From an uncultured virus (IMG/VR IMGVR_UViG_3300037067_026316) (lineage: Duplodnaviria; Heunggongvirae; Uroviricota; Caudoviricetes), in the IMG/VR virus record IMGVR_UViG_3300037067_026316: a stretch of 64,000 nt of DNA; one strand, given 5' to 3'. Made by a program: the position numbers and the translations under genes. Positions 1 through 57,339 of this stretch are shown one piece after another. Each line of letters begins with the position of its first letter. The first letter of the stretch is position 1. Below the pieces are notes generated by a model. It was not told where the DNA came from. It did no database searches and worked only from the letters and a program-made list of their open reading frames with translations.

Positions 1-45
1 TGTACATATATACATATATACGTGTGGGGTATTGCTATATATAAC

Positions 46-82
46 TTATAAGCTACTATGATCCTGGGGTAGTAGCTTATAA
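46..82. repeat. Perfect 13-bp inverted repeat upstream of terminase
   Basis: TTATAAGCTACTA (46-58) is the reverse complement of TAGTAGCTTATAA (70-82); 11-nt loop. Confidence 0.85.
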
Positions 83-374
83 AGGCCCACATTTTTATAA
101 ATATACTTCCGGGCCGATAACCATAGGTGTACGCGGTGGGAAATGGTGTTATCGTGAATCGATAGCAGTAGACTAAAGGAATCGCTATGAGAGAGTTGAT
201 CAAGTACAATTGTGTTTGATTCTATAGACTATGGAATAGCGAGGTTGCCAGAAGTGCTTTTAGGGTGCTTTTGCCTTTAAATCATAGCTGTAGGAATTGG
301 TACATATAACTTATAGATAATGACCTCGGGAATTGGTATGTTTTAGTAGATATTAAAAAACAATTGATATCAGT

Positions 375-420
375 AGACTTAAATTAGTTCGTTGCTAAAA
401 CAATGAACTAATTTAAGTCT
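375..420. repeat. Perfect 16-bp inverted repeat (hairpin/cruciform)
   Basis: AGACTTAAATTAGTTC (375-390) pairs with GAACTAATTTAAGTCT (405-420); the stem extends inward via GTTG/CAAT. Confidence 0.9.
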
Positions 421-951
421 TGCAATTTTATTGAGAGGCTGGAGGATTAAAGGCCTTGGGAACAGGCTGCTATTTTATCTGATCTTCTGCAGGAGACCGG
501 AGTATGGTATATTCGACAGCAGTAGACGGCACGAATCGAAATACCAGCACCGGGAGGGGTTTTTTAGTAAGACAAAGATATGGTGGGGTGGGGAGTCCTG
601 AGGGGTACAAAAATCCTACATACATCTTTAGAAAATAGACTAATACTATATAAATACTTATATTATAGTACACATCTACAACTAGTTATAGCTTTTTGAA
701 GAGTTGAAAAAAGGAAGGACTTAAATTTGTATGTCATAAAAGATGGTTATGTGACGTATAAAGGATTTTGTGTGTTATAGATTACTCATAAAGGAAGTAT
801 ATAGAAAAAAATAAAATGTATATAGTGCTATATATTTTTTAAATTATATGTTTATTTCTGTAGTTATTATATAACAACAAAAATTTTTACTAAATTTTTA
901 ATATTTTTCAAACTCATATAGATTACATTTACTATACTATATCTATGAGAA

Positions 952-2538
952 ATGTTATATAGAAAGAGCTTAGATCAAACATCAGGAAGGACAATGAAAC
1001 TGAAGTTTGAAAGAAAAGAGTTATCGCTCATAGGTCGTTATCTAGCAAGGCCATTGAAAAAAGAGGAAGTAGAGGCCTTACAGTGGACCTATGATAGTTT
1101 TGCATATTTTACATATACTATTTATAAATGGGCTGTACAAAGGCATTTTGAAGAATTTGTTGGTGGACAATTTATAATTGATGAATGCAATTTCCTGCAG
1201 AACAACGATAAGACAATAACAGTAGAACCAAGAGCTCATTGGAAGAGCATGAGGTTTTATGCTTATCTAATGTGGAGGCTTTGGAAGAATAGGTATGATA
1301 GAAGGAATATAAGATCATCTTATTTTTCTTATAGAAAGACGCTAGCAGAAGAGCACGTTCAAACATTAAAGTATCTTGTTGGAGACTCTATTCTTCCTAT
1401 CCTGGGAATGGTAGATGAAAAGGGAAGAGCGGATACATTAGCAAGATTTACATGGGATTCCCACAGGCCTATGAGTGACCGTAAGAGGTTTATGGTTAAG
1501 CCTCATGGTCTCCTTGAGTTCTCAAGAGGCACTCATACTGAGATTGTACTTGTGGATGATCCTCTTAAAGATGATTCTGATCCTAATGCAAGGACTAATG
1601 TCTGGCGAATTAATTCTATATTTGTCTCTGTAGTGATGAATATTCCTACCAGGGATGGAGTTTTACATGTAGTAGGAACTCCTCAAACAGAGGATGATTT
1701 TTTATTTGATAAGAATATTCAGAAAGAATTTAAAACTAGAGTAAAACCTGCTATATATGTTGAGAATGGAGAGGAGAAAGCTCTATGGCCTGAGATGTTT
1801 CCCCTAGATCTTCTAAAAAAGATGAGGGAAAGCCGGAAGATAAAGCTGAAAGGCGGTGTGGTCTCAACCTTCGAGCAAGAATATATGTGCGCTCCCAGGG
1901 CTGCAGCATTTTCTTACTTTGACCATGAGCTATGCCAAAGATGTATAGATATATCTCTCCACAACAACGACTTTTTCAGCATAGGGGTTAAGTGGAGGCC
2001 ATTCGCTGGAAGATATTGCATAGCAGGATATGACCCTGGCAAAAGGGTTAATCCAGGTCATTTTTCAGTTCTTGAAGTCTATGGAGGTCATTATACTCAA
2101 CTTCTCAGCAAGTGGTTCGACCATGTAGATTATGCATCTGTAGGAGAAGTGGGATACTCTCAATTTTCCTATATTAATAAAGCTAGAGAAAAATTGCATA
2201 TTACTTCTATTATGGCAGATAATACTAGAGGAGAGCTTACTACTGCAGAAGAAAGAAAGATCATTCCGGGTTTGGTTTGTGTTTCCATCACCCCTAGAAA
2301 GAAAATGGAAATGGCACAGGCTATCGATTCTGCGATGACTGATAGAGTTCTACATCTTGTAGATGATGCAAGGCAAACCAGACAGCTCATGGGCATTCAG
2401 CAGGATCTGACTTGTGCGAGCACTTCTGAAGGCCATGGAGAGCCGTTAACTACCATAGGATTGCCCCTTTCTACTTTATATTTCAAGCAGGGGCTTCTAG
2501 GAGCTAGGAGAGGGAGTTATCTCATAAAGCTTCATTAA
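952..2538 (+). CDS. terL: Terminase large subunit
   Basis: Walker A-like EPRAHWKS, Walker B VLVDD, motif III VGTP, LWPE..P and FEQEYMC motifs, RNase H-like GYDPG; lies upstream of portal. The true start may be the later Met (MKLKF). Confidence 0.9.
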   Translation: MLYRKSLDQTSGRTMKLKFERKELSLIGRYLARPLKKEEVEALQWTYDSFAYFTYTIYKWAVQRHFEEFVGGQFIIDECNFLQNNDKTITVEPRAHWKSMRFYAYLMWRLWKNRYDRRNIRSSYFSYRKTLAEEHVQTLKYLVGDSILPILGMVDEKGRADTLARFTWDSHRPMSDRKRFMVKPHGLLEFSRGTHTEIVLVDDPLKDDSDPNARTNVWRINSIFVSVVMNIPTRDGVLHVVGTPQTEDDFLFDKNIQKEFKTRVKPAIYVENGEEKALWPEMFPLDLLKKMRESRKIKLKGGVVSTFEQEYMCAPRAAAFSYFDHELCQRCIDISLHNNDFFSIGVKWRPFAGRYCIAGYDPGKRVNPGHFSVLEVYGGHYTQLLSKWFDHVDYASVGEVGYSQFSYINKAREKLHITSIMADNTRGELTTAEERKIIPGLVCVSITPRKKMEMAQAIDSAMTDRVLHLVDDARQTRQLMGIQQDLTCASTSEGHGEPLTTIGLPLSTLYFKQGLLGARRGSYLIKLH

Positions 2539-2546
2539 GAAAGTTA

Positions 2547-2556
2547 TTTATACTAT
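2547..2556 (+). promoter_or_regulatory. Archaeal-type TATA box with upstream purine-rich BRE-like segment
   Basis: GAAAGTTA-TTTATACTAT about 50 nt before ATG 2603, with a GGAG RBS; the same motif recurs before other gene blocks. Confidence 0.55.
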
Positions 2557-2602
2557 AACTACGCTTTAGTCTCCTATAACAAACAAAGGAGATGAACAAG
2601 GT

Positions 2603-3292
2603 ATGGCTTTCAAGAAAGAGAATGAGATCCCTGATAATGGGTATATAGATCTGCAGATTGCGGCACCAATAAAGTATATTGTGAGCATTGTAGGACAATC
2701 AGATATTCTATTTAATCGAATGATAGATCAATCTGAGACTCCTGCAGAAGGAGTTTTAAACGGAAGTAAAAAGAGTGCAATTACAAAGGACAAAGCAGAA
2801 GTTGAGAGGCAGATCTGGAGGGAGAAGGCATACTTCAGACCAGAGAGTGAAGTTCTGTATATCCCAGGAGAGAACATTCATCAATGCATGGTAGATGGGG
2901 CTTCCTACTGGGGTATGACTATACCAGGTAGAGGAAAGACTCAGTATACAGGAGTGGTAAAGGCTGGAGTTATTTGCCAGGATATAAGCCTTGCAACATT
3001 GGATAGCGAAGGAAACTACGTTGAAGCAACAAAGGCTGATCTGGTTAGCTTCGGAAGGTCTGTGAATGGTACTCCTACTAAAGGAAAAGGAAGTAAGGTT
3101 TATAGAATCCGTCCTTCGCTGGAAAGCTGGAATGGAACATTCCTAATGACAGTTATAGATGCCCGTCTTACTCCTCAGATTTTGAGAACAATAGTCTCAT
3201 ATGCAGGCCTATATAGGGGTCTAGGGGATTGGAGGCCTAACCATGGGCGCTTTGAGCTGGAGCACCTGGGAGAAGTTATGGGTAAGGCATAA
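2603..3292 (+). CDS. Stand-alone Cas7/RAMP-like RNA-binding protein (candidate effector of a GGY/NN-repeat RNA-guided system)
   Basis: RAMP-like layout: N-terminal strand VSIVGQSDILFN, central LYIPGENIHQCM (cf. IPGSSxKG), RIRP..W strand, C-terminal glycine-rich loop AGLYRGLGDWRPNHGRF. Confidence 0.75.
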   Translation: MAFKKENEIPDNGYIDLQIAAPIKYIVSIVGQSDILFNRMIDQSETPAEGVLNGSKKSAITKDKAEVERQIWREKAYFRPESEVLYIPGENIHQCMVDGASYWGMTIPGRGKTQYTGVVKAGVICQDISLATLDSEGNYVEATKADLVSFGRSVNGTPTKGKGSKVYRIRPSLESWNGTFLMTVIDARLTPQILRTIVSYAGLYRGLGDWRPNHGRFELEHLGEVMGKA

Positions 3293-3311
3293 GCTGCCCA
3301 TACCTTTTTAG

Positions 3312-4103
3312 GTGGTTTTTATGAAAGAGTTGTCTTCGGCAGATACCAAAGAGCTTGTTAATTTGTATATTGAAGAGCTCGGACAGACTGGAACGGCTAG
3401 AAAGCTTACAGAACTTGGATATAGGAGCCCTGAAGGTTCTTCAATTTTACAAGCACATATACATAAAATTATGCATGGAGCAAATATTTGCCTTTTAGCT
3501 CCTGAGAAAGAGCAGCAACTTAAGGATGTTATAGAAAGTAAAGAACAAACTCAGATAGATATTTGGGCTCCTTATGATCCATTCATCCCTAATAAGCGTA
3601 TAAGGAGTCCACAAGATATCATAGAAGATGCTGCAAATTGGATAAATGATGTGGTTTGTAAAGTTAAGATGTATGGAGAAGTTCCTAAAGGAGAAATACA
3701 ATTTACTCATATCTTAATGTCAAATCTTCTTGAGGTGAATTATATTCCTGGTAGAGTAAATAGAGTCTACTATGACTTTGTAACTGATCTTAGGGTAGTT
3801 TTGATGAAAAAGTATGGTATTTCTCTTAGGACCTTAAGATTTAGGTGTTCAGCTAATGGGGAGACTGGCGGCTATGCTGTAGAGACTAGAGGGCAATTTT
3901 CTTATGTAAGTCAGCTTTTGGATAAGATGGTTAGTTATGGGTCTCGCGCATCGATGTATATATCTCAAATAGAGGCACGGCAATTGGAAATTCAAGATCC
4001 TCAACTTAAGGAGAGAATTCAAAGAATTAGGCCTCAGCTTCTTGGTATGAATGAAAAACTAGGGACTTCTAGGATACGTATCGGCAAGAGGGAGAATTTA
4101 TGA
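3312..4103 (+). CDS. Hypothetical protein, possibly DNA-binding; candidate accessory of the RAMP locus
   Basis: 263-aa ORF; N-terminal helical ARKLTELGYRSPEG segment resembles an HTH/recombinase-type DNA-binding element; co-oriented with the RAMP gene. Confidence 0.5.
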   Translation: MVFMKELSSADTKELVNLYIEELGQTGTARKLTELGYRSPEGSSILQAHIHKIMHGANICLLAPEKEQQLKDVIESKEQTQIDIWAPYDPFIPNKRIRSPQDIIEDAANWINDVVCKVKMYGEVPKGEIQFTHILMSNLLEVNYIPGRVNRVYYDFVTDLRVVLMKKYGISLRTLRFRCSANGETGGYAVETRGQFSYVSQLLDKMVSYGSRASMYISQIEARQLEIQDPQLKERIQRIRPQLLGMNEKLGTSRIRIGKRENL

Positions 4104-4303
4104 GAAAATCAAGTGTAAAGTTAGAGCTTAATGGTGAGGAAAGGTTGTTGTTTACTAAACCTAGATTAAGACAAATTGATAGCAATGGACGGGTATTTGT
4201 GTCTAAGAATTATGTTGGCAAAGAGGTTCTAATGTTGTTAATTGATCCTATAGATGAGGATTTTAAGAACTTCAATCCTATAGCGAAGACTTACATCTTG
4301 TGA
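4100..4303 (+). CDS. Small AbrB/DUF2080-like DNA-binding protein
   Basis: RQIDSNGRVFVSKNYVGKEVLMLLI fits the swapped-hairpin pattern common in archaeal mobile elements; ATGA overlap with the upstream gene. Confidence 0.65.
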   Translation: MRKSSVKLELNGEERLLFTKPRLRQIDSNGRVFVSKNYVGKEVLMLLIDPIDEDFKNFNPIAKTYIL

Positions 4304-4319
4304 ATAAAGTTAAAATAAA

Positions 4320-4484
4320 GGCAAGGCAAGGTTCAAGGCCTGGCATGGCTAGGCTAGGCAGGGCAAGGCAAGGCAAGGCAAGGCAAGGTTCAAGGCATGG
4401 CTACATAAGCCTCAGCCAGCTCAGCAGCTACAGATATGTTTGCCAGGTAATGCAGAGGCAAGGTTCAAAGGTTCGGTGAGGTTA
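4320..4484 (+). ncRNA. GGY/NN pentamer repeat array (candidate guide RNA precursor)
   Basis: Intergenic GGC-AA-GGC-AA-GGT-TCAA-GGC-CT-GGC-AT-GGC-TA-GGC-TA-GGC-AG-(GGC-AA)x5-GGT-TCAA-GGC-AT-GGC-TA; AGGCAAGGTTCAA recurs at 4324, 4381 and 4456. Confidence 0.7.
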
Positions 4485-4498
4485 AAAAAAGAAAAAAC

Positions 4499-4557
4499 CA
4501 GATGGTATAGTAGTTACTTACTACTTTGTGTATTGGAGGCAAAAGTTCCACCATCTG
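4499..4557 (+). other. Stem-loop directly downstream of the GGY/NN array
   Basis: CAGATGGT (4499-4506) pairs with ACCATCTG (4550-4557), enclosing an AGTAG/CTACT hairpin. Confidence 0.45.
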
Positions 4558-4796
4558 TGAGCTATTAATTTTGAACTGCCGTTCTCTTGGAATGACAGGG
4601 AATATATTAGACCTATCTTAGGGTGATTAAATTATTTAAAAGTATCTATCAAATCGATAAAACAAACATTTAAATATTATATCTTTTACATATGATATTG
4701 GATAATGAAGTCCTTCTTGAAAAGGATGAGGCTGTTTATTAGCAGATGGGATGAAGTAGAGAAGGAATCATTTATAATAAATTTTGAAGTGTAAAA

Positions 4797-4949
4797 ATGG
4801 CAAAATCTCTTAGACTTGGATTAACTTTAAGTGAGGAAGATGTAAATGTATTCTGGCAGAATGAGAAAAATTATGTTGTAACACTGCAGCAGAAGCTTCA
4901 GTTTGAGGAAGCACAACGGATTTATCAATTGAAGCCGATTATATTTTAA
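4797..4949 (+). CDS. Small protein (50 aa), possibly antitoxin-like
   Basis: Hand-translated MAKSLRLGLTLSEEDVNVFWQNEKNY...; below the ORF-track cutoff; resembles small methanogen proteins beginning MAxxIxLGLxLxGED (recalled, unverified). Confidence 0.45.
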   Translation: MAKSLRLGLTLSEEDVNVFWQNEKNYVVTLQQKLQFEEAQRIYQLKPIIF

Positions 4950-5271
4950 TGGATACTCTTGGCTAAATAAAGTTCCATGAGGTTCTCGCTAAATGTCCAA
5001 ACGGACATTTCCAAAACCTTTTTATACTATAGCTGTACTTTATACTACTATGGTAGGAATATTAGATGAAAAACGCTGGCAAAGAAGTAATACAGGAATG
5101 TATCATAACGGGAGATGTAATGGAGCAGTAAGATTAAGACCATTGTATCTCTCTGGGGAAAAACTTTCTTATAATGAATTAATTAAACGAGGTTTACCTA
5201 TATGTAAAAAATGTATACGTATTTAAAATAAAGAGTGATATAATAAAGGAGGCTTCTATATAGACAATAAT

Positions 5272-5502
5272 ATGAGCATAGCAGAAGAGGCTTATCAGGA
5301 ATCTCTTTGTGAGAATGCAGAGCCTTTTGGATGGGAAGATCAGCCTAAGAACATTAAGGTTTTGCGAATTACACAAGAGCAGAAGAGAACATTAATTCTT
5401 GCAATTGAATTGATTGAATCAAATATTTATTACAATGACCATATAATGTTTGATCTTTGTAATTTGCTTAAAATTATGCTGAAGGAGATGGGGCAAAAAT
5501 GA
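5272..5502 (+). CDS. Hypothetical protein with ITxEQ...MLxE module
   Basis: GGAGG upstream; shares a module with the next gene. Confidence 0.6.
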   Translation: MSIAEEAYQESLCENAEPFGWEDQPKNIKVLRITQEQKRTLILAIELIESNIYYNDHIMFDLCNLLKIMLKEMGQK

Positions 5503-5825
5503 ATTCAGAAGATCATATTGATAATCGTTGGTGGCGAATCACGAAAGAGCGTAAGCATCTCATAAGTTTCCTTTTATCAGGTGAGTTTGATAGAAATTGC
5601 TCTTGTGGTTGTTGCAGACGTGCATTAAGAGAGGGTCAGGTTATGCTGGAGGAGGCAGCAGGAATAGATCTAGGAGATTCAAAGTGCGGGCAAATTACTG
5701 AAGAACAAAGAGAGGCCATTAGAATAATCATATCGGAAATGGAAAATGTGTCTACGTATATAAATGATCCATTCTGTGTAGATACTGCAACGGATATATT
5801 AAAAGCTATGTTAGAGGAGATATAA
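5499..5825 (+). CDS. Hypothetical protein with two ITxE...MLEE modules
   Basis: ATGA overlap with the previous gene; GGAG RBS. Confidence 0.6.
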   Translation: MNSEDHIDNRWWRITKERKHLISFLLSGEFDRNCSCGCCRRALREGQVMLEEAAGIDLGDSKCGQITEEQREAIRIIISEMENVSTYINDPFCVDTATDILKAMLEEI

Positions 5826-5880
5826 AACTATGAAAAGAAGAAGAGAGGATAAAATTTATATACTTTTATAGACAGATATA

Positions 5881-6041
5881 CTCTTGCTTATGCGGGCTTC
5901 TCACGTATAAGCTTCTTGGCCGAAATGGAAATATCTCCTCTGCAAAAAAAAGCAAGAGCGAATCTGAAGGGATTGGGGATCTTAATTGGGATCAGGAGGC
6001 GTTTATGCCTTTTCACCTCCTTTGATCCTGATCCCAATTAA
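5881..6041 (+). ncRNA. Candidate structured small RNA(s) with CU-rich anti-Shine-Dalgarno loops
   Basis: TATA-like TTTATATA about 25 nt upstream; CTCTTGCT/AGCAAGAG stem (5881-5958); perfect 16-bp stem 5982-5997/6026-6041 with TCACCTCCTT in the loop. Confidence 0.5.
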
Positions 6042-6116
6042 AGTTGTCTGATATAGCAAGTTATAGCAGTAATTTTACGAAAGATATAAGTTTAATCTTC
6101 ATGAGACTATCATATC

Positions 6117-8042
6117 ATGAGAATTGAAAAAAGTAGAAAAGCCAAAAGTAAAATAAAAGGGCATGCTATTACTCCGGAATTAAGATTTCATAGCGGTGGG
6201 GGATCAGCAGATGTATCTAATAAAGTAAGTTTTTACCAAATGTCTATTTATGATATGAAAAACTTTCTTGCTTCAGATCCTTCAAGAATTAATAAATATG
6301 TTTTATATAATTTAATGGTTAAATTAGATACTGAGTTAAGAACAGCTATTAGTATGATATCCTATACAGTGTCTAATTCTTACATGGGACCTGCTATTAA
6401 AGAGCCTCCTAAAGAGTTCGATAAGAGCACAAGATATATTCCGTCAACTCCTTATTTTCTGAAAGACGTGGAGAAGATCTTAGGGGAAATCAATTTCTCA
6501 AATGGCCTGCAGGCTATGGTAAGAATGATAGTTAGAGATGGGGATATCTATTATAGAATTCATAGAAAAGATAATAGAGAAATATCTCATCTTGAGCTTC
6601 TGCCTTCAGGAGCTGTAACGATAATGGATAACGAATATAAGAAAGATCCTAAGGAAGCAGGGTATGTAATTAGATCGCCTGATGTTTTTCTTCTTAACGA
6701 AGTTTTAGATACTGGAGCAACTAAAGGAACTTATGTTAATCAACAGACTCTAAGTAATCAAGGAGCAGCAGGGACTATTTATTCTAAAACTTCTGTTTTA
6801 TCTCCATTTTCGGGAATGTCAGATGGTAAATTATCAGGAGTTGCTGGATCAGAGAGCGTAGCGATGTATGAAGGAAGCGCTCTTACAATTCTGGAACCAG
6901 AAGAAGTACTTCATTTCTCTTACCAGCGAGAAGGTAGTGCATGTCGAGATATCTTAGGGAGGAATACATTTTCGATCTATGGAGAGAGTCCGTTAGAATC
7001 TTTGGTATTTATCTTGAAGCTTAAAATGGCTGTCACTCTTGATTACATGCTTTATAGTAGAACTGGTCTTCCCAGGTGGGATTTTTCTGTAGAGCTTTCT
7101 GAAATTATGAATCTTGAGAATTATACTGGAGACTATCAAAATCGACTCAAAGAGGCCCGAGGGCTAGCGAAAGAGATCTTTAATGAATTTGAAAAACAGT
7201 TATATTATGTGGATGAGGACCCTGAATCACCAACAGTAGGATCTACAATACCAATGGAAGCTGATCATGCTTTTATTCACGGAAATGATGTAGCTGTAGA
7301 ACAAAAAGGCGGAAGGCCTGCTAGCACGCAATATTTAGAGGTTATTAAGAAATGCGACATGTCCATTTGTTCTGCTTTAGGGGTCCCTCTATCTCTATTT
7401 GGGTATGAATCAGCTCAGACATATGCAATAGGATATATTACTAGATCTTTTATGTTATCTTTTGGCGGAAGCCTATTGAGTTCTATAGGTGGAGAAATCA
7501 AACAATTCTTAAAAGCTGAATTTGAAAGGAGGAACTTGCAGGCAGAGCCTGCAGATTGGGATCATTTAGAACTGGCATATTATATTGATGATTCTGATGC
7601 TATAGCCCTTGAAGCCGAACTTGAGAAAGCACGTCTTAATATTGCTGTTCAGGGTTATGTTAACGCTCTTCTTACTAAGAATGAAGGAAGGGCAAGAATT
7701 GGCTATGAGGATGTTGATGATGGAGATCAGTTTAGGGAAATTCCAGCGTTTAACAATCCTGGGAATCCTGCCAGCGCTGGAGAAGGAATTGGATCTGAAA
7801 CCGGAGGCTTAAATCCTCTAGGGGCTGGATACTCTGGAGAGGGAGGCGAATTATCAGGAATGCAGAAGAATCAATCTGCAGAAAAGCCTCATTTCCATAG
7901 ACATGATAGTTTAGAAGCTTTTTCAAGCTTACGAGAAAAGGAACCTGGGATGGAAAGTAGAATAAAGACGATTTATGATAAAGCTCTTCAGAAGGTCTTG
8001 GAAGATTTGGCTGTTCAATTAGATGGAGTTAGAAATGGCTAA
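6117..8042 (+). CDS. Portal protein
   Basis: Position; IVRDGDIY, EEVLHF, YGESPLE, ICSALGVPLSLFG and LTKNEGRARIGY are typical portal motifs. Confidence 0.85.
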   Translation: MRIEKSRKAKSKIKGHAITPELRFHSGGGSADVSNKVSFYQMSIYDMKNFLASDPSRINKYVLYNLMVKLDTELRTAISMISYTVSNSYMGPAIKEPPKEFDKSTRYIPSTPYFLKDVEKILGEINFSNGLQAMVRMIVRDGDIYYRIHRKDNREISHLELLPSGAVTIMDNEYKKDPKEAGYVIRSPDVFLLNEVLDTGATKGTYVNQQTLSNQGAAGTIYSKTSVLSPFSGMSDGKLSGVAGSESVAMYEGSALTILEPEEVLHFSYQREGSACRDILGRNTFSIYGESPLESLVFILKLKMAVTLDYMLYSRTGLPRWDFSVELSEIMNLENYTGDYQNRLKEARGLAKEIFNEFEKQLYYVDEDPESPTVGSTIPMEADHAFIHGNDVAVEQKGGRPASTQYLEVIKKCDMSICSALGVPLSLFGYESAQTYAIGYITRSFMLSFGGSLLSSIGGEIKQFLKAEFERRNLQAEPADWDHLELAYYIDDSDAIALEAELEKARLNIAVQGYVNALLTKNEGRARIGYEDVDDGDQFREIPAFNNPGNPASAGEGIGSETGGLNPLGAGYSGEGGELSGMQKNQSAEKPHFHRHDSLEAFSSLREKEPGMESRIKTIYDKALQKVLEDLAVQLDGVRNG

Positions 8043-9048
8043 AGTTTTGCTCTTTAAAGGGGTAGAAAAGAAGTTGTGGGAGGATAGTAAAAAAGGTTTA
8101 ATACCTTCTGATCTTACTTTTTATAGAGATACCAAAAAAGTAGAAGGTGGAGCAGCTTTAGCGGCTAGAAAAAATATAAAAGATATTGTTGATGGGGGCA
8201 TTATTGCTGCTGAGATAGATGAAGAGCTTTTAATGAATATCGAAGGAAAGGCTCTTAGCTATGCGGAATTGGTTAAAGTAAAACCGGAAGTTGATAATTT
8301 TAAAGTTTATCTTAGGATTCCTTCTCTAAAGATACCTTCTTCATCGAAGGAATTCCTTTCTTTAGTAAGCCAAAGGATTAAGAATGTAGAAGAATGGAGA
8401 TCAGATAAGAAGCCTATTGTAGATTCATTGTTTAAAACTTTTGATAGGCAAATAACTGAAGAAATGGCTCGGGAATTAATTAAGGATTTTTGGCAGGGTG
8501 ATTTAGCAGCTCAAAAGGAAAATCTTCAAAAACTTGGTAATCAATCAATAGGCATTGGTACAACTCCTAACCCTCAGGTATTGGAAGGCGCTGTTCTTTC
8601 TAAATTGGAACCTATTTCAGAATGGAATTCAGCTCTATCATCTCATATATCTGACAGTTTAGAAGAGTTAATAAGAGATGGTAATGCACATCCTTCAGAA
8701 CTTGCAAATATTATTAGACAAAAGACTCCAGAGATATTAACTTCTGAAACAATAACTATTCAGCGTGAAGGGAAACGTGCAATTGAAATGTCTACTGGAT
8801 ATTATACTGAGCTTCTTGCTAGAACTATTCCTTTTGAAGTAAGAAATGCTGGATATATAGATAGGATGAAACAGTTTAAAGATATGTATATTGGATGGAA
8901 ATCTATATGTCCTGCAGATGAAAGAAGTTGCGAAGAATGTTTAGAAAAAATGAAAGAATCAGAAAAAATACCCTACAAATGGTCTGATGAAATACCTCCT
9001 TATCATCCTTTATGTAGATGTAGGCCTTTAGCAGTAAGAGAAGATTAA
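8023..9048 (+). CDS. Minor head protein (MuF/SPP1 gp7-like)
   Basis: C-terminal DERSCEEC...PPYHPLCRC motif; directly follows portal. Confidence 0.85.
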   Translation: MELEMAKVLLFKGVEKKLWEDSKKGLIPSDLTFYRDTKKVEGGAALAARKNIKDIVDGGIIAAEIDEELLMNIEGKALSYAELVKVKPEVDNFKVYLRIPSLKIPSSSKEFLSLVSQRIKNVEEWRSDKKPIVDSLFKTFDRQITEEMARELIKDFWQGDLAAQKENLQKLGNQSIGIGTTPNPQVLEGAVLSKLEPISEWNSALSSHISDSLEELIRDGNAHPSELANIIRQKTPEILTSETITIQREGKRAIEMSTGYYTELLARTIPFEVRNAGYIDRMKQFKDMYIGWKSICPADERSCEECLEKMKESEKIPYKWSDEIPPYHPLCRCRPLAVRED

Positions 9049-15753: not shown

Positions 15754-15903
15754 ATGGTTAATATGCAAACAGGGGGGAATTCTAACCCTAAGATGATAAA
15801 GGCAACAGGGACGGGAACAGATCTAGATCCTTTTGTTATTGAATTCTCTTTGCCTGCGGCTCAGATAACTCAATTGATTGCTGATATAGGTGGTGCGGTT
15901 TAA
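15754..15903 (+). CDS. Short protein duplicating the N-terminus of the DGR target
   Basis: MVNMQTGGNSNPKMIKATGTGTDLDPF vs MANMESGGASNPKMIKATGIGTDLDPF; GGTGGTG RBS before ATG 15754 (the ORF track starts at 15718). Confidence 0.6.
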   Translation: MVNMQTGGNSNPKMIKATGTGTDLDPFVIEFSLPAAQITQLIADIGGAV

Positions 15904-17539
15904 AATGGCTAATATGGAATCTGGAGGAGCCTCAAATCCTAAGATGATAAAGGCAACAGGTATAGGGACAGATTTAGATCCTTTTATTATTGAATATGCG
16001 CTTACAGCTTCTCAGTTAACTCAACTAGCTGATGGTATGGTTAGTGCGTTAGCTTCATTGCCAGCTCATTATGAAAGATCAAGAATGTGGAAAAACAAAG
16101 GTAGTGATAGCGCAGCTAATCGCCGAACTTTAGTATCTCCTGATTTCTTAACTGTTAACATAAATAATGTAGGATATGTTAAACGAATAGAACAGGAATT
16201 AGATTTAGATGTAGTTGATACATGGGATACTATTGTTGGAACAGATTATTCTATAGCAGCAAATAGAGCTGGAAAAGATTTCTTTGTATATGCCTGTCAG
16301 CCTGTAAGCGGATCAGAGCCAATATTTCTTGTTTCGGCTGCAACTACTTATCCGGCAGGGTATTCTGCTTTGACAAGTCGTAAAATAGCTCAGTTTCATT
16401 GTGAATGCCTTAATGTAGGAACTATTTCAGGTCATTCTCTTACTGGATACCTTACAGGAGATATTTTACCTAGATCTATTCAAGACTTGAAACATAGACC
16501 AAATAATAACAGAGAGTTCAAGAATGGATTTGTATGGGGTGGTGTTACTGATTTTGATACCATTAACTATGCTCCTGTTTGGAAAGCTATTTACATGGCT
16601 TCCGGTACTGGTATTAATATGGCTTCAGTCTTTGGAGCTGTTGCCAAAGTATCTTACAACTGGAATCAGTTTGTAAATGATTTTGGATTAATCGGTTGTC
16701 GTATGATGACTGATGAGGAATTTCAAGTTCTATGTACAGGAATTGAGGAAGAAGTAAATGTTGCAGGATCAGTATCACCTACTACGACTGGAGGACATGT
16801 ATCAACAACAGGTCGTAGAATGATCTCAAATATAGGGTCTGAAGATGATGCTGGAGTATGGTGGCAATGGTTATCAACTCAGTCATATCGTGTTGATTTT
16901 GACGGATCTGTAGTAGCAGCTTCGCAAACAGCTAATGTTATTCATGATGCTGCACCTGGCGGGAATCCTGTTTATGTAGATTATATGGCAGATGGTAGTC
17001 CTTACTTATGCTGTAACATGGCAACTACAGGGGTAGATAAATGGGTAGTTTTTGGATCTACTTATGCTGTTTTGATAAAGCATATGTCTTCTATCCCTGC
17101 AACAGCAGTACAGGTTTATCTTGATGAAGATGCTACGCAACCTAATAGATTATTAGCTGTTATGGGAAGAGGAAAGAATAGCTATATTCAAGGATATCCG
17201 AATACAGCTTTTCAGCTTCAAATAACTCATAATATCAATGCAGCTACTTTAGGTAGTGCTATATACTTTGATGATGGGGCTAATCAGAGATTGGAATTTG
17301 CATCTCCTACAGCGCAGAGTGGTGTTATAGATATGGCACAAGATGCTATATCATGGGGGTATTACGATTTACCAACAGGAGTTGGATCATTATACCGACA
17401 GGGATCTTATGGTGATGTAAAGCTGCTCGCGGGCGGGTATTGGACGGATGCGACTTATGCGGGTTCCCGTGCTCGGTTTGGTCATAACTATCGCTGGTTT
17501 GCGACTTCGTATATCGGTGGTCGCCCTGTTGTCGACTAG
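15890..17539 (+). CDS. DGR target protein, C-type-lectin-fold (Mtd-like) receptor-binding/fibre protein
   Basis: GRRMISNIGSEDDAGVWWQW and C-terminal LLAGGYW...GSR..IGGR motifs; contains the VR. Likely start is ATG 15905. Confidence 0.9.
   Translation: MVRFKMANMESGGASNPKMIKATGIGTDLDPFIIEYALTASQLTQLADGMVSALASLPAHYERSRMWKNKGSDSAANRRTLVSPDFLTVNINNVGYVKRIEQELDLDVVDTWDTIVGTDYSIAANRAGKDFFVYACQPVSGSEPIFLVSAATTYPAGYSALTSRKIAQFHCECLNVGTISGHSLTGYLTGDILPRSIQDLKHRPNNNREFKNGFVWGGVTDFDTINYAPVWKAIYMASGTGINMASVFGAVAKVSYNWNQFVNDFGLIGCRMMTDEEFQVLCTGIEEEVNVAGSVSPTTTGGHVSTTGRRMISNIGSEDDAGVWWQWLSTQSYRVDFDGSVVAASQTANVIHDAAPGGNPVYVDYMADGSPYLCCNMATTGVDKWVVFGSTYAVLIKHMSSIPATAVQVYLDEDATQPNRLLAVMGRGKNSYIQGYPNTAFQLQITHNINAATLGSAIYFDDGANQRLEFASPTAQSGVIDMAQDAISWGYYDLPTGVGSLYRQGSYGDVKLLAGGYWTDATYAGSRARFGHNYRWFATSYIGGRPVVD
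17422..17533 (+). repeat. DGR variable repeat (VR)
   Basis: 112-nt ungapped match to TR with 14 mismatches, all opposite TR adenines. Confidence 0.97.
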
Positions 17540-17589
17540 GAGTTATTGTTATCAAAAGTCAATACTTTGGTAATAGGCTGAGTAAGTTT

Positions 17590-17701
17590 GCTGCTCGCAG
17601 GCAGGAATTGGACGAATGCGACTAATGCGGGTTCCCGTGCTCGGAATGGTAATAACTATCGCTGGAATGCGAATACGAATATCGGTGGTCACCCTGTTGT
17701 C
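17590..17701 (+). ncRNA. DGR template repeat (TR)
   Basis: Copy of VR with 8 AAT and 1 AAC codons in the VR frame; lies upstream of RT. Confidence 0.97.
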
Positions 17702-17836
17702 AGAGATCCGGGAAAAAATGACTTGGAGCCAACTCCCGGCTGAATTTACTAGCCTTGCCTTAGATCAGGCAAAATACAAGACGGAGGAGAAGAGTAGCTA
17801 GTACGTAAAAGGAACGTTACTTTTCTTAAAATTTAT

Positions 17837-18826
17837 ATGAAACGACATGGGAATCTATTTGAAAAAATAGTTGATTTAGATAATATCTATTTAGCTTATA
17901 AGCTTGCTAGAAAAGGTAAAACATGGCAAGATACTATAATTAGATTTGATGATGATTTAGATGAAAATATTTTTAATATTCGTGATATTCTTGTTGAAAA
18001 AACTTTTACTACTTCAAAATATATAGAAAAAGTAATTTATGAACCAAAGCAAAGAATTATTTATAAATTACCTTTTAATCCTGATCGTATAGTTCAACAT
18101 GCATTGATGAATGTACTTGAACCTATTTGGGATAATATTTTTATTTATGATTCTTATTCCTGTCGAAAAGGGAAAGGTATTCACGCTGGTAGTAGAAGAA
18201 CTATGGAGTTTATTCGTGCTGTAGGATCAGAGGCATATTGTTTAAAAATGGATATTAGGAAGTTTTACCCTTCAATAGATCAAAATATATTGTTTGATAT
18301 AGTACAGCAGAAGATTAAATGCAAAGATACACTTTGGCTTTTAGAAGATATTATTTATAGTATTTCTGGAGGAAAAAATATACCTATTGGCAATTATACT
18401 AGTCAATGGCTGGGTAATCTTTATATGAATGAACTAGATCAATTATTAAAGCATAAATATAAGATTAAATATTATATTAGATATTGTGATGATTTTATAT
18501 TATTACATCAAGATAAGAAGTTGTTAAAAAATATAGCTGAAGAAGTTGAAGAATTTCTTGCAGAAAAATTATTATTAAAATTAAGTAAAAATAATATATT
18601 CCCAATAAATCAAGGTATAGATTTTTTAGGGTACAGACATTTTCCAGGCTATATATTAGTAAGAAAATCTACTGCTAAACGAATTAAAAAAAGAATGTAT
18701 AAACTTCCTGGTATGCTTAAGCGTGGTGAAATTTCTTTAAGTCAGTATAAATCATCTATTGCATCTACTAAAGGTTGGCTTATGTGGTCTAATAGTTATA
18801 ATTTCCAAAAATATTTAGGAGTATGA
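17837..18826 (+). CDS. DGR reverse transcriptase
   Basis: DRIVQHA, LKMDIRKFYPSI, IPIGNYTSQ (DGR-type SQ motif), YIRYCDDF, GIDFLGY. Confidence 0.97.
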   Translation: MKRHGNLFEKIVDLDNIYLAYKLARKGKTWQDTIIRFDDDLDENIFNIRDILVEKTFTTSKYIEKVIYEPKQRIIYKLPFNPDRIVQHALMNVLEPIWDNIFIYDSYSCRKGKGIHAGSRRTMEFIRAVGSEAYCLKMDIRKFYPSIDQNILFDIVQQKIKCKDTLWLLEDIIYSISGGKNIPIGNYTSQWLGNLYMNELDQLLKHKYKIKYYIRYCDDFILLHQDKKLLKNIAEEVEEFLAEKLLLKLSKNNIFPINQGIDFLGYRHFPGYILVRKSTAKRIKKRMYKLPGMLKRGEISLSQYKSSIASTKGWLMWSNSYNFQKYLGV

Positions 18827-21215: not shown

Positions 21216-24200
21216 ATGGCTGCTACTAAACTTTATGCGTTTTGGGAATTGTCGGGAAACCCGCCTTCTCCCTGGTATAAAGTTTTAACTTATAATGATA
21301 GATTTCCACGTAGTACTAGTAATACGAGTAGCGCTTTAGGTACAGGTGGAAATAACACTCATTTGCATAGCTTGAATAGTGGTCATACTATATCTACTAC
21401 TAACGATTTAACTAATATTGCATTTACGCCAGGAACTTCAGTTTTACAAAGTTATGGAGTAGGTCATAATCATAGTATAGGTACTGTAGCAATTGCTGCT
21501 GCATCTAATAATCCATCATATTATACTTTATCGCTAATTGCAATAGATCTTTATGAGTTCGTAAATTCGCAAAGAAAGCTTCCTAAGGGAGCGGTTGTTG
21601 CATCTACTGCATCTATTTCAGATGCAGGGTTTAGTAGAATTAGTTCTGCAGATGGGAAATTGATAAAGTTATCAGATGTTCCGGGAAGTAGCTATGATAA
21701 TACAACTCATGTTCATAGCTTTACAGGATCTCTTTCGTATTATCAAAGTAGTGCAGGTCAAACAATAGCTGCTGTAGCTGCTATTCTTTATGGTCCTATT
21801 GGAGATACTCATACTCATGGAGTTTCATCTCTCTCTACAACGAGTGAATCTATAATGCCTTCCAGAATTCAGACAAGGCTTTATGGAATTACTGCAGATC
21901 CTTATACTTCTTCAGTACCAATAAATACTGTTTTATTTGTTGATGGGTCTATAACAGGTTATACAAATTACTTTGAGACTATAGCTACATGGAATGATAG
22001 ATTTATTGAATCAGCAGATAGCGATCCTACTCAAATAGGTTCTGACATACATAATCATGGAAGTTCTACTTCCGGAGCTTCTGATATTAGCGATAAATCT
22101 TGGGGTAGCGGGAAAATCTATGGTAGTAGTAGAGCTATATCACGGAATCATACTCATGATCTTGTAATTTATATTGATTCTACTGATGTAGATCATAAAC
22201 CACCATATGTTTATCTTGCGGCGGTTAGGGTAAAAGCTAGTATTTTGTCTCAACAAACTAAAACTAAAACCTATAGTATGAAGACTATCCTCCAGAAGAA
22301 GGATTCTCCTAGAAGTTATGGTATGGATATTAGGCTTTTTAGACCTGGTAGTAAATACTATAATATGGGTATATTTATGCAAAAAGGAGGCCTTACAAAG
22401 ACTATTAATATGGATATTAAGCTCCTTCTACAAGGTTTTAAGAGTTATGATACTGATATAGTTCTTAAAAGAAATGATATGTCTATCAGTTATAGAATGG
22501 ACATGGCTCCTTTATTTTTAAAAGGTAGAAAATACGAGATGGGGATTAGGTTAGTTAATATTGCAGCTATTCCTCGATATTCAGTTATTAATACGTTGCA
22601 AGATTCTTATATTGGTCAATATAATAAATTTTTACAAACTGTTGAAGCTTCGAAGGTAAGTTTAAAAATTGAAAGCGCTGCAGGATATGATTTAGAGCGA
22701 AGATGGGGAAGAGCTTTTGATCTTCCTAGAGATCCTGGGGAAACAGACACTCAGTATAGATCTCGATTAATGTCTTATATGTCTTCGGTGGTAGGTTGTG
22801 GAACCAAGTCAGCAATTAAAGCTGCTCTTAATGTTGCAACTGGAGGCCAAAAGGCTAGAGTTGATTCTTATCCTGGTTTAATTAGAGTTAACTTTGATTC
22901 TGATTTTCAAAGAAGAGCTGCTTTTGAGAGACGAACAACTATAGAAAAGATTTTAAATTTTTCTGTAGCTGCAGGGATACAATGGATTTTATATCTGCCA
23001 TTTAAAGATTATCGTATGAATATTCTTCTTAGAAAAGAGAGGTTAGATAAGAATTATAATATTGATATGCTTTTGGAAAGGAAAGGTATATCAATCTCGT
23101 ATGCTATGGATTTAATAATCTGTAGCGTTCGTGATAAATCTTATACAATGGATACGCTGCTTGAAAAAACATGCAGCAAAAATTATAGTATGTTCATGGG
23201 GCTGAAGCGTATAGGCTTAAACCCTTATGAGATGGATACAAGGCTTCTAAAGAAATCTATTACAGTGTCTCATATTATGGACTTAAGATTAATGAAAATC
23301 TGTAGCAAAATCTATTATATGAAAATGATACTGGAGAAGTTCAATATTGAGAAAAAGTATGTAATGGATATGAGGCTTACTAAGACTGATTATAAACTTT
23401 ATAAAATGGCTATGATATTGAAGAAGAAATTTAATGTATCTTATTCAATGGATTTACTGTTGGCTCTTAGCAGGAAGAAATCTTATGTTATGGATATTTT
23501 CCTAGTTAATAGGATTCATAAAATTTATACAACGGATCTGCTTGTTAAGAAGTTAGGAGATGATGCAAAAGAGAGTATTGCAGCAAAGATTGTTGAAGGG
23601 GCTTCACAATCTTCATTAGCTACATCCTTAGGCGGTAAGATATGGATAAAACCGCAAGAAGATATAGTACTTCCTGAGATGGTTTATGGAAGTTATAAAG
23701 ATGTTAATGGATTAAATCAATACTTTAGCGCTGATATTCCAGCGAATACAAAGGCGTATTCCAGCATAAAAGCGAATTTATGTAACTATATTTCAGTAGG
23801 GACATTACCTTTTATAATCTATCAAGGGGAGATAGAAGGGGAAACATTAGCTACAGAGATAACTGATGTAGATTATACAGGGCTAAATGGATTAACTAAT
23901 TATGATGTATTAATTAGAGATGGATTAATCTCAGATTACACTATGGATATCCTACTTGCTAATGAAAGAACAATGACTATAGATGTAAATATAATGCTAA
24001 ATAAATCCGTTACAAAATCTTATTATGTAGATATATTACTTAAGAAAGTATTCTTTACAGATTATAATATGGGTATGAGATTAAAAACTGTAAGGAGTAA
24101 ATCTTATCTGATGGATTTATATCTTATGAAAAAGGCTAGGATCAAGACTTATACAATAGATTTGATGTTAAAGAAAGCTTGTTTAAAGATCTATTTCATG

Positions 24201-24826
24201 GGCATTCTTACGAAAAAGGCTAGGACTAAGACTTATACAATAGATTTGATGTTAAAGAAAGCTTGTCTAAAGATCTATTTCATGGGCATTCTTACGAAGA
24301 AGGCTAGAACTAAGACTTATACAATGGATTTGATGTTAAAGAAAGTTTATCCAAAAATTTACTTTATAGATATTCTTATAAAAAAGGCTAGAACTAAGAC
24401 TTATACAACGGATCTGCTTGTTAAGAAGTTAGGAGATGATGCAAAAGAGAGTATTGCAGCAAAGATTGTTGAAGGGGCTTCGCAATCTTCATTAGCTACA
24501 TCCTTAGGCGGTAAGATATGGATAAAACCGCAAGAAGATATAGTACTTCCTGAGATGGTTTATGGAAGTTATAAAGATGTTAATGGATTAAATCAATACT
24601 TTAGCGCTGATATTCCAGCGAATACAAAGGCGTATTCCAGCATAAAAGCGAATTTATGTAACTATATTTCAGTAGGGACATTACCTTTTATAATCTATCA
24701 AGGGGAGATAGAAGGGGAAACATTAGCTACAGAGATAACTGATGTAGATTATACAGGGCTAAATGGATTAACTAATTATGATGTATTAATTAGAGATGGA
24801 TTAATCTCAGATTACACTATGGATAT
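21216..24826 (+). CDS. Giant fibre/baseplate protein, 5' part (interrupted by assembly gap)
   Basis: HxH fibre domain paralogous to 12915; gpI-like segment DLERRWGRAFDLPRDPGETDTQYRSRL; KxYxMD repeats; duplicated ~140-aa domain. Confidence 0.75.
23525..24826 (+). repeat. Near-identical direct repeat of at least 426 bp (23525-23950 and 24401-24826), plus 84-bp tandem units at ~24131-24400
   Basis: Offset 876 nt; only one difference seen by eye (GCTTCAC vs GCTTCGC); the 3' end of the repeat recurs after the gap (24927-25053). Confidence 0.9.
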
Positions 24827-24926
24827 NNNNNNNNNNNNNNNNNNNNNNNNNNNNNNNNNNNNNNNNNNNNNNNNNNNNNNNNNNNNNNNNNNNNNNNNNN
24901 NNNNNNNNNNNNNNNNNNNNNNNNNN
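24827..24926. other. Assembly gap (100 N)
   Basis: Run of N flanked by repeat sequence. Confidence 1.
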
Positions 24927-25591
24927 AAGGGGAGATAGAAGGGGAAACATTAGCTACAGAGATAACTGATGTAGATTATACAGGGCTAAATGGATTAACT
25001 AATTATGATGTATTAATTAGAGATGGATTAATCTCAGATTACACTATGGATATTTTGATAGGATCTGAGTTATTTAAAGTCTATACTATGGATCTACAAC
25101 TTAGGAAGGCTATCTTAAAGACTTACCAAGTTGATACTCTCTTACAGGGACAACGTATAAAATCGCTTTTTATGGATATCTTCTTGGCAAAAAGAATAAA
25201 TAAGTCTTATGCAATGGATATCTATCTTAAGAATGTTAATTTTAAGTCTTGCACTATGGATTTGCAACTTAGGAAGACTGTCTTAAAGATTTATGCAGTT
25301 GATCTACTTATTCGTAAGAAAGAAATCTTGAAAACTTATAATATGAGTTTAAAGATTAGAACTTTATGGAATAGGAAGATCTATGTTATGGATATATTCC
25401 TGATGAAGCGGATAAGTAGATCCTATGTGATGGATATCTATCTTATGCAGAAAGATCGAATTAGAGCTTATACTATGAGTTTAGTAGTACAAAAGGAGCA
25501 TGTTAAATATTTTAGTATGGACACTCTTATAGAAGAGCGTAAGATAACTCCTTATGGAATGGGAATCATATTGGAGGCTGCAGCTCCATGA
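24927..25591 (+). CDS. 3' continuation of the 21216 fibre/baseplate gene (ORF track 25046-25591)
   Basis: Post-gap sequence repeats the duplicated domain and runs in frame into MDILIG...; same KxYxMD repeats. Confidence 0.7.
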
Positions 25592-45306: not shown

Positions 45307-45609
45307 TTAAGAATCTTCTGGAATTTCTGGATATAGACTTGAAATGATCTTTACTAAGGCATCCTCAGAGACAACTCCAGATTCTCTTACAAGAGCTAAG
45401 CCCTGCATAATACCAATTAAATATGCTGACATAGCTAAAGAAGCTAACTTATCATCTTCAGGTAAATCTTTAATTTTAATGCTATCATAGATTAGATTAT
45501 TAATAATATCTTCCATAGAAGATTCTTCCTTTCTTGCATACTTCTCCATGATAGCATCTGTCTTCATCTGAGCTATTCCCTTTACTGCTCTTGTCAAATA
45601 GTTTTTCAT
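45307..45609 (-). CDS. Hypothetical protein
   Basis: ATGA overlap with the polymerase gene. Confidence 0.55.
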   Translation of the reverse strand: MKNYLTRAVKGIAQMKTDAIMEKYARKEESSMEDIINNLIYDSIKIKDLPEDDKLASLAMSAYLIGIMQGLALVRESGVVSEDALVKIISSLYPEIPEDS

Positions 45610-52914: not shown

Positions 52915-53571
52915 TTGATTAACTTGGATACTAATAAAATAGATCATATATCAGCATCGCAAATACATACATGGCTATATTGCCAAAGATCTTATCATTT
53001 TAAGTATAATCTGAAATTGCCACAGGCATCTAGCTGTTTTATGTCGCGAGGGAAGGTATTTCATGAGCGGATCGCAAAGGCTCTCCAAGAAAAAAAGGAA
53101 CCTAAACTTCCTAAAAGATGGTTAGCGAATTACAAAGCAATAGCTGAGCGCTTAAATTTTTCAGACGATCTCTTGATAGAGGAAAAAGTTGAGACAAAGA
53201 TAGATGGGTATAATGTCTTAGGATACATCGATGTTATAGATTATAAGAGAGCCCTTATTGTAGACTGGAAATTTGGAAGGAAGATTTCCAAGTACAACGT
53301 TCAAGGATATTTATATAAAAGGTTAGTAAAAGAAATATACAATATAGACTGTGATGTAGCTTTTTGTTTTATACCATCTCTATCGATTAATCCAATGTAC
53401 CCTGCAGATTATGCTGATGGAGAAAGCATCTTTAATTCTTTCATAAAAAAGCCACAAGATAGCAATTTTAAATTCTACCCTAGCTCACGAAAATGTCAAA
53501 TGTGCGGTTATTATATGTACTGCATGAATCCCGAGGTGATCTCTGCTCTTGAAGGACCAAAAGATATTTAA
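52915..53571 (+). CDS. Cas4-like/RecB-type PD-(D/E)XK nuclease
   Basis: ISASQI...C, G..FHE, GYIDVID, IVDWK, Q..LY, C-terminal CQMC.Y..YC (four-Cys arrangement). Confidence 0.85.
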   Translation: MINLDTNKIDHISASQIHTWLYCQRSYHFKYNLKLPQASSCFMSRGKVFHERIAKALQEKKEPKLPKRWLANYKAIAERLNFSDDLLIEEKVETKIDGYNVLGYIDVIDYKRALIVDWKFGRKISKYNVQGYLYKRLVKEIYNIDCDVAFCFIPSLSINPMYPADYADGESIFNSFIKKPQDSNFKFYPSSRKCQMCGYYMYCMNPEVISALEGPKDI

Positions 53572-56882: not shown

Positions 56883-57339
56883 GGTTATGGATAGACAAGC
56901 GGGAAATAAGGAAGTATATGAGGCAGATATATATTATAATGCCAAATGGAAACCAGAAGAAGAAATAGACCTCGGTAAAGGTGGAAATGCATCTCCTTGT
57001 AGATGCTTAGCTGAAAGTGATTGTAGGCCTAACATAGTTTCAAAGCCAAAAGAAGGTAGCTTTAAAGCTAGGATAGCAAAAAAACTTCAAGCTGAAAAGG
57101 AAAAGCAAAAGAGAATAGAAGTAAAGCCAAAAAAGAAAAACCTAAATTTCAGAGAATTAAAAGAGAGCAGAAGAGTATACGTCTTCCCAGGGAATAATAG
57201 AGTAATAGTTGAAAATGCATGTCGCATTGCTATTATGGATAGCGGCATACATAGAATCGAGACCACTACAGGAGAGAAGCACATAATTCCTACTGGATGG
57301 CTGCAAATTAAGATAAATAGTAAGGAGTGGAATTTTTAA
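56863..57339 (+). CDS. Hypothetical phage protein
   Basis: C-terminal R.YVFP...SG.HRI....KHIIPTGW pattern. Confidence 0.55.
   Translation: MDCTESKVMDRQAGNKEVYEADIYYNAKWKPEEEIDLGKGGNASPCRCLAESDCRPNIVSKPKEGSFKARIAKKLQAEKEKQKRIEVKPKKKNLNFRELKESRRVYVFPGNNRVIVENACRIAIMDSGIHRIETTTGEKHIIPTGWLQIKINSKEWNF

Follow-up and report, generated by a model that had tools for sequence, protein, structure and literature searches.

Positions 2,603 to 4,484 of a 64,000-nt stretch of DNA from an uncultured tailed phage (IMG/VR record IMGVR_UViG_3300037067_026316; the whole stretch is called the window here) very probably form a VIPR locus, composed of a vipr gene, a divergent vap-like gene, an optional small open reading frame (ORF) and a short array of guide RNA (vrRNA) units. 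VIPR, for Viral Interference Programmable Repeat (10.64898/2026.04.26.720920, 10.64898/2026.04.26.720927), is described in the texts of three 2026 preprints as a CRISPR-related viral RNA-guided DNA silencer (10.64898/2026.04.26.720920, 10.64898/2026.04.26.720927, 10.64898/2026.10.15.759431). The assignment is supported by homology to the Vipr protein of phage SUSP1 that extends to its GG contacts, a RAMP-like structure model, strand-specific linkage of the repeat tract to vipr in relatives, and variation specific to the guide. An earlier reading of the window (the original prediction) had proposed a lone Cas7/RAMP-like gene with a GGY-NN array and had suggested the name VIPR for such an architecture; the name proved to be real, and the 2026 preprints show this architecture for SUSP1.

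The gene order described in the original prediction was borne out. A 229-aa ORF containing the motifs YIPGENIHQCM and GLGDWRPNHGRF heads a co-oriented unit that continues with ORFs of 263 and 67 aa and ends in a non-coding period-5 tract, all on the + strand between the terminase and portal genes (Table 1). When the 229-aa protein, which we call window Vipr, was compared with all PDB sequences by phmmer, a single match was returned, 36pp_D, annotated as 'SUSP1 Vipr protein' (E 1e-5), in which residues 163-224 of window Vipr aligned with 131-192 of the chain, and tblastn linked window Vipr to phiSUSP1 at E 8e-4. It belongs to phrog_4652 (PHROGs, E 2e-15), a family without assigned function, and to no Pfam family; the Vipr family as a whole comprised 1044 cluster representatives at E<=0.001. 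In the phmmer alignment, R170, D209, W210 and R211 stand opposite SUSP1 R138, D177, W178 and R179, which, according to the cryo-EM study, contact G1, G2 and Y3 of each GGY through the thumb and G-loop, and silencing by SUSP1 Vipr is reported to be abolished by D177A or R138A (10.64898/2026.04.26.720927). All four residues of window Vipr were invariant in two alignments of relatives, as was E90, the equivalent of SUSP1 E71, and the G-loop G206-L-G-D-W-R-P212 was invariant among the aligned relatives. The GGY-holding residues named in the same text are H17, R138, D177, W178, R179, E71, M72, C173 and T175 (10.64898/2026.04.26.720927). Among the others, three more positions are not conserved, M72 being aligned with N91, C173 with R205 and position 175 with L207; residue 175 is V in the 36pp_D chain as aligned, but is given as T175 in the paper.

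An AlphaFold2 (AF2) model of window Vipr, built from a 16-sequence alignment, had a mean predicted local distance difference test score (pLDDT) of 73.7, with weak segments at 1-13, 39-73 and 156-164, the last of which is the thumb tip and of low confidence. Foldseek found 109 matches to this model at E<=0.001 in a PDB copy that ended on 2026-04-08, with no Vipr chain among them. The top matches were type III Csm/Cmr, type VII and Cas7-11 chains (E 2.8e-7 to 6e-5, TM-score ~0.45-0.58, 10-16% identity), consistent with the RAMP-like protein that had been proposed for this ORF. Sequence and model together support the window protein as a homologue of SUSP1 Vipr with a RAMP-like fold.

The type III backbone RAMPs (Csm3, Cmr subunits, Cas7-11) and type VII Cas7 were thus the best structural matches, and by the model window Vipr would share with CRISPR RAMPs an RNA-recognition-motif (RRM) type of domain, a glycine-rich loop and polymerisation on a guide RNA. 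Beyond the low identity, it differs from them in period, which is 6 nt in CRISPR RAMPs and 5 nt here with a fixed GGY in each unit, and in the mode of recognition, since CRISPR RAMPs pair contiguously whereas the published VIPR target is double-stranded DNA (dsDNA) read in a gapped code. The VIPR locus is also without a CRISPR array or further cas genes in its vicinity. As had been claimed from the start, the window contains no CRISPR repeat-spacer array by Tandem Repeats Finder (TRF), and none of its 71 ORFs scanned by PADLOC matched cas1/2/3/5/6/8 or the Cas7 and Cas10 families; membership in the Cas7 proteins of CRISPR-Cas types III and IV was rejected on these grounds, there being neither a repeat-spacer array nor companion cas genes. 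The only Cas-named PADLOC matches were a distant Cas4-like nuclease, 48 kb away, and reverse-transcriptase (RT)-type models, including the RT-bearing Cas1_IIIb, on the RT of a diversity-generating retroelement. PADLOC is older than the description of VIPR, and it returned nothing for Vipr, the vap-like protein or the 67-aa ORF; Pfam gave no informative family for the three, with only a weak Recombinase match in the vap-like protein.

The tract itself was found by TRF at 4318-4401 (period 5, 16 copies, score 83). There are three strict (GGY-NN)n runs, all on the + strand: one of 11 units at 4337-4391, preceded by 3 units at 4320-4334 and followed by 3 units at 4470-4484. The 11-unit run falls under the published search rule of at least four tandem YNNGG/GGYNN units adjoining vipr on the same strand. 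The tract is the sole site in the 64 kb with at least 5 in-phase GGY per 60 nt, with a peak of 11, compared to a maximum elsewhere of 4 on the + strand and 3 on the - strand. The description of the tract as constant GGC/GGT trinucleotides separated by variable dinucleotides holds for its period of 5 nt but not for its uniformity: the register is broken by two 7-nt GGTTCAA units (4330-4336 and 4387-4393), and 4404-4456 is not GGY-NN sequence. Read in register (Table 1), the array contains one ten-unit guide with the NN series CT AT TA TA AG AA AA AA AA AA, the opening of a second, and, at 4457-4484, five further units that are degenerate.

The heptamers appear to be part of a grammar that is shared by the closest relatives. 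In loci L001, L003, L004, L006, L084 and especially L081, a GGTTC-NN heptamer breaks the GGC-NN runs at intervals of 42-82 nt, usually preceded by one or more GGCAA or GGCRT units. The density of GGTTC is 12.9 per kb within the arrays of this close clade, compared to 0.9 per kb in the non-array sequence of all loci, and its spacings are mostly 5k+2. Such spacing implies guides of ~7-15 units, and the published guide length is given as 9-16 units (10.64898/2026.04.26.720920). By this reading L081 has six complete guides, while the window has one, of 10 units at a spacing of 57, and one that is interrupted. The predicted guides of this clade lie head to tail, parted by GGTTC-NN heptamers, with neither a leader nor a pseudoknot tail of the SUSP1 kind, and each ends in GGCAA(n)-GGTTC, which makes this guide end a candidate processing or filament-termination signal. 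The arrangement fits what the legend of fig. S18 calls 'staggered vrRNA arrays', in which guides lack separate leaders and tails and the end of one is the start of the next (10.64898/2026.04.26.720920); the GGTTC-punctuated runs of the window and of L001, L003, L004, L006, L081 and L084 were matched to the text of that legend alone. The string 'GGTTC' occurs 0 times in the main and supplementary text of the same preprint, the drawing of fig. S18 aside (10.64898/2026.04.26.720920).

The non-repeat segment that interrupts the second guide has relatives of its own. In four metagenome runs, other short contigs match positions 4404-4457 with 2-5 differences; their depths are unlike that of the phage, and after 4457 they diverge from the window and soon regain GGY-NN-like units. 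This pattern suggests that 4404-4456 may be a module common to the arrays of different elements. Two exact window sub-strings from this segment gave 0 matches to it in IMG/VR and 1 chance match in a coding region of a 313-kb contig.

To characterize the tract in relatives of vipr, we used 342 candidate IMG/VR stretches, 312 of which encode a relative, and analysed the best 80 loci, counting as a tract any 50 nt in which 6 or more GGY were in phase. A tract on the strand of the gene was present in 73 of these 80 best viral loci (the seven without are L018, L019, L023, L032, L037, L057 and L074). None of the 175 gene-strand tracts lay more than 2 kb from vipr (55 were upstream of it and 110 downstream), while the opposite strand held 6 tracts across 772 kb, in 4 high-GC loci. 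Homologues lacking an adjacent GGY-NN tract had been named beforehand as an outcome that would refute the prediction; adjacency was what we found.

Comparison of near-identical phages showed where the locus changes. Metagenome contig L082 matches window positions 3-8279 at 99.5% identity, with the first 114 nt divergent; over the ~8.1 kb from 115 to 8275, the differences are confined to the guide, apart from one single-nucleotide polymorphism (SNP) at 4912. Within the guide, L082 has a 10-nt insertion corresponding to two units and substitutions at 4355, 4356 and 4361, all of them NN positions, giving a 12-unit series of CT AC AT AT TA AG AC AA AA AA AA AA. Every GGC is kept in both guide alleles, and NN pairs are diverse across the arrays of relatives. 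Contigs from three other studies that bridge the tract (X5, X6 and X7) indicated tract lengths of 100, 95 and 95 nt, compared to 90 nt in the window; these values were obtained by subtraction and are lengths only, since the repeat at 4305-4394 was skipped in laying the reads, and assemblies of repeats can err. X5 also carries the SNP at 4912, and the flanks of X5-X7 otherwise have no differing letters. The guide tract is therefore almost the sole variable site among near-clonal copies of this phage and exists in three length alleles.

The gene that follows vipr is, with moderate confidence on sequence grounds, a vap-like accessory gene. Its protein has three database homologues of 186-195 aa at 68-74% identity, all without the N-terminal ~70 aa, and in L081, whose Vipr is 75% identical to window Vipr, a vap-like homologue lies directly after vipr and ahead of the array. 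The part conserved adjoining vipr in close relatives is thus the C-terminal ~190 aa. The N-terminal extension of ~70 aa (3321-3530) is helical, with a weak Pfam Recombinase match (E 0.044) over residues 10-52, and may represent a DNA-binding domain fused to the protein, possibly of the helix-turn-helix type. In the farther clade L001-L006, a conserved gene of 147-169 aa occupies the position after vipr, and its profile matched the SUSP1 post-vipr gene by hhalign (probability 87.9%, E 3e-6); we infer from position that the latter is vap1. An AF2 model of the vap-like protein was unusable (pLDDT 41.3), and the Atlas gave no usable feature match for it. The 67-aa ORF had no Pfam or PHROG match and is absent from L081. 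Its Atlas look-alikes, which are leads only, were DUF2080-type clusters and an AbrB/MazE-like fold (scores 0.87-0.89). When the first 12 kb of the window were compared by BLASTP with the ORFs of the 80 loci, vipr alone was shared.

For SUSP1, the preprint texts report experiments in which one Vipr protomer is bound to each GGY-NN unit, the GGY is sequestered and the NN pairs read gapped dsDNA with one base skipped (10.64898/2026.04.26.720920, 10.64898/2026.04.26.720927). The vrRNAs co-purify with Vipr and binding silences transcription (10.64898/2026.04.26.720920, 10.64898/2026.10.15.759431); natural targets are described as a satellite phage and rival prophages, with Vap1 needed in infection (10.64898/2026.04.26.720920, 10.64898/2026.10.15.759431). 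By analogy, the window array would be transcribed from the + strand, and Vipr protomers would polymerise along the RNA at one per GGY-NN unit, burying each GGY and presenting the NN pairs. These pairs would then read dsDNA with one base skipped after every two (NNxNNx...), and the outcome would be transcriptional silencing of a competing mobile element. The proposal that each subunit binds one GGY-NN unit, with the NN pairs together spelling a gapped target, is supported here through homology to SUSP1 Vipr. Applied to the window guide, the same rule gives a predicted target of CTxATxTAxTAxAGxAAxAAxAAxAAxAA on either strand.

The window and the type II VIPR of SUSP1 (Vipr, Vap1 and four vrRNAs; PDB 36pp) share a homologous Vipr with the G-loop GxGDWRP and the thumb arginine, the order of vipr, accessory gene (putative in the window) and GGY-NN guides on one strand, guides of ~10-12 units, and carriage by a phage without a CRISPR array; the post-vipr gene of the L001-L006 clade resembles that of SUSP1. 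They differ in that the two Vipr proteins are only ~23-26% identical and that a clade-specific insert (WG..IPGxGxxxY) is not in SUSP1. The SUSP1 guides are separate genes, mostly of GGT-NN units, each with its own leader and a conserved pseudoknot tail, whereas the window has GGC units in abutting guides parted by GGTTC-NN with no detectable tail structure, and its vap-like protein has the ~70 additional N-terminal residues.

Several observations weigh against the VIPR reading. Among the GGY-holding residues, SUSP1 H17 is not kept and falls at a gap beside the invariant Asn38 of window Vipr. The vap-like protein matched the post-vipr profile of L001-L006 weakly (hhalign probability 50-57%, E 1e-4, over 55-59 columns), and its direct comparison with the SUSP1 post-vipr gene gave no match. 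The guide is low in information, with 5 of its 10 units being AA, and a 53-nt non-repeat segment interrupts the second guide. When 4320-4545, 4394-4460 and 4387-4484 were folded, none did better than shuffled sequences (z +0.84, +0.70 and -0.03), giving no sign of a structured 3' tail; this absence bears on the type of VIPR and not on membership, and array architectures other than the tailed type are allowed in the published description (10.64898/2026.04.26.720920). A scan of 2300-5200 found 9 promoter-like sites, compared to 8.5 expected, and 0 terminators, and there were no RNA data sets among the sequencing runs listed as containing the locus. Nor was a target found. In the window and the loci of relatives (1.43 Mb), searched under skip rules 0-3, the best match with a 1-nt skip covered 17 of 20 bases and was no better than under the other rules, and 26 clade guides (that of the window and 25 from relatives) matched no better than shuffled guides. 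In IMG/VR, the exact pattern of the window guide had 3 matches, all in AT-rich DNA (18-34% GC), compared to 15 for a control with the unit order reversed, and no match was found for that of the L082 guide; the competitor element may be absent from the collections searched.

A rival reading is that the locus is VIPR by descent but decaying or idle, its low-complexity guide and broken second guide no longer of use and its variation neutral pentanucleotide slippage. The failure of every search to find a target would be expected of such a locus, as would its single complete guide beside the six of L081, the 53-nt break in its second guide, and length alleles separated by multiples of 5 nt, the pattern expected of slippage. 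We nevertheless consider decay quite unlikely: the vipr ORF is uninterrupted and keeps every conserved residue, the vap-like gene and flanks are identical in L082, and three of the differences are substitutions at NN positions alone rather than slippage of units, with GGC in every unit of both alleles. The position of the tract in the packaging module, between terminase and portal, would also suit an ordinary microsatellite or a packaging or replication signal unrelated to the RAMP-like gene. This explanation is largely refuted by the linkage described above, in which 73 of 80 unrelated viral loci with a vipr relative also have such a tract, on the strand of the gene and within 2 kb, and with the GGY-binding residues of the solved complex kept in window Vipr, it is highly improbable. 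An open frame, ORF 4300-4479, does span the tract and could be read as a Gly/Arg/Gln-rich repeat protein of 59 aa. The alleles differ by 10 nt (L082) and 5 nt (X6, X7) inside it, which breaks the frame, and it is therefore ruled out as coding sequence; moreover, 5 nt is not a codon period, and in relatives the repetition by itself leaves several reading frames of the array open, on either strand. The chance that the tract is coding is negligible.

Table 1. Features of the putative VIPR locus and its flanking genes, in window coordinates
Feature	Position	Strand	Basis or remark
Terminase large subunit	952-2538		PHROGs
vipr: 229-aa Vipr, stand-alone RAMP/Cas7-like, predicted guide-RNA-binding	2603-3292	+	PDB 36pp_D, phrog_4652, AF2/Foldseek
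vap-like accessory gene (putative)	3312-4103	+	263 aa from GTG 3312, or 260 aa from ATG 3321
67-aa ORF between vap-like gene and array; optional	4100-4303	+	
Array stub GGCAA GGCAA and GGTTCAA punctuation; first copy of conserved guide-end motif	4320-4336	+	Same motif closes each L081 guide
Guide tract of the sole complete vrRNA (predicted): 10 GGC-NN units	4337-4386	+	
GGTTCAA punctuation	4387-4393	+	57 nt after first copy (10 pentamers and 1 heptamer)
GGCAT GGCTA: two more units, opening the second, interrupted guide	4394-4403	+	
53-nt non-repeat segment within array region	4404-4456	+	Candidate roles: decayed guide, or tail/spacer module
Degenerate array end: GGCAA GGTTC AAA GGTTC GGTGA GGTTA	4457-4484	+	
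Portal	6117-8042		PHROGs

The window is part of a tailed-phage genome that encodes terminase, portal and baseplate J (PHROGs, Pfam), and Pfam further identified thymidylate synthase and kinase, a DnaE-type polymerase and a diversity-generating retroelement. The original prediction had taken the phage for a probable methanogen virus; the evidence does not support this, and the host is more likely to be bacterial. The nearest genomic relatives of window Vipr (44, 44 and 38% identical) are in metagenome-assembled genomes labelled with the bacterial names Pelotomaculum, Saccharibacteria and Holophagaceae. The polymerase III alpha of the window is of bacterial type, and its relatives among GenBank phages were bacterial phages only, at 25-29% identity and from many host bacteria. 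Terminase had distant matches to Bacteroides phages only, the portal had no match in the same host-directed phage comparison, and no tRNA was present in the window. The runs containing the phage are landfill and groundwater metagenomes. The sole archaeal hint, a lead only, came from the Atlas neighbours of the 67-aa ORF.

Several other features lie near the array or elsewhere in the window. An Rfam DUF3800-X RNA motif (4703-4773, + strand, 58.5 bits with gathering threshold 38.2) lies 300 nt downstream of the array, and no DUF3800 family was found by Pfam among the 65 window ORFs. The motif was considered as part of VIPR and rejected, being absent from the loci of 16 relatives. DUF3800 domains have reportedly been linked of late to RNA-centric defence (Adt1); that an orphan phage DUF3800-X RNA might be a decoy is pure speculation. 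At 2020-2100 of L081, after its array, there is a GC-rich hairpin with a T-run that by eye resembles an intrinsic terminator on the strand of the array. The retroelement, at 15890-18826, combines an Mtd-like target gene (Pfam mtd_2nd, E 5e-12) with an RT gene (RVT_1, E 2e-20), and its 112-nt repeats (variable repeat 17422-17533, template repeat 17590-17701) have 14 differences, 14/14 at template adenines. An 84-nt tandem repeat (24122-24408, 3.4 copies, 90% match) within a 1240-aa ORF (21216-24938) corresponds to a 28-residue unit that is repeated in the product, a probable tail protein. The polymerase is encoded at 45606-49601 on the - strand as part of a 1331-aa fusion of uracil-DNA glycosylase, PHP and DNA polymerase III alpha (DnaE-type). 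The Cas4-like PD-(D/E)XK nuclease at 52915-53571 (PADLOC Cas4, E 2e-12; Pfam PDDEXK_1) has no visible link to VIPR, and nucleases of this kind are typical of phage recombination modules. An SNF2 helicase at 57327-60020 and 61249-62837, split by a LAGLIDADG-type, intein-like insert and similar to ZorD and DpdE by PADLOC, adjoins two radical-SAM genes, and together they may form a DNA-modification module.

The differences between guide alleles also raise the question of how they arise. It seems unlikely that a dedicated process, instead of passive slippage and selection, actively rewrites VIPR guides; candidate routes could be unit-wise exchange of cassettes between arrays or copying by the phage's own RT. 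If true, active guide rewriting would be a primitive counterpart of CRISPR adaptation. The high novelty first implied for the system is not supported, since this kind of system is already in print; what the locus contributes is useful detail, in its guide turnover and its GGTTC grammar, and not a new system. With this locus the VIPR family would gain a divergent, low-GC phage from the environment while the known picture of VIPR stays unchanged, and those who work on VIPR are offered a clean natural example of guide turnover.

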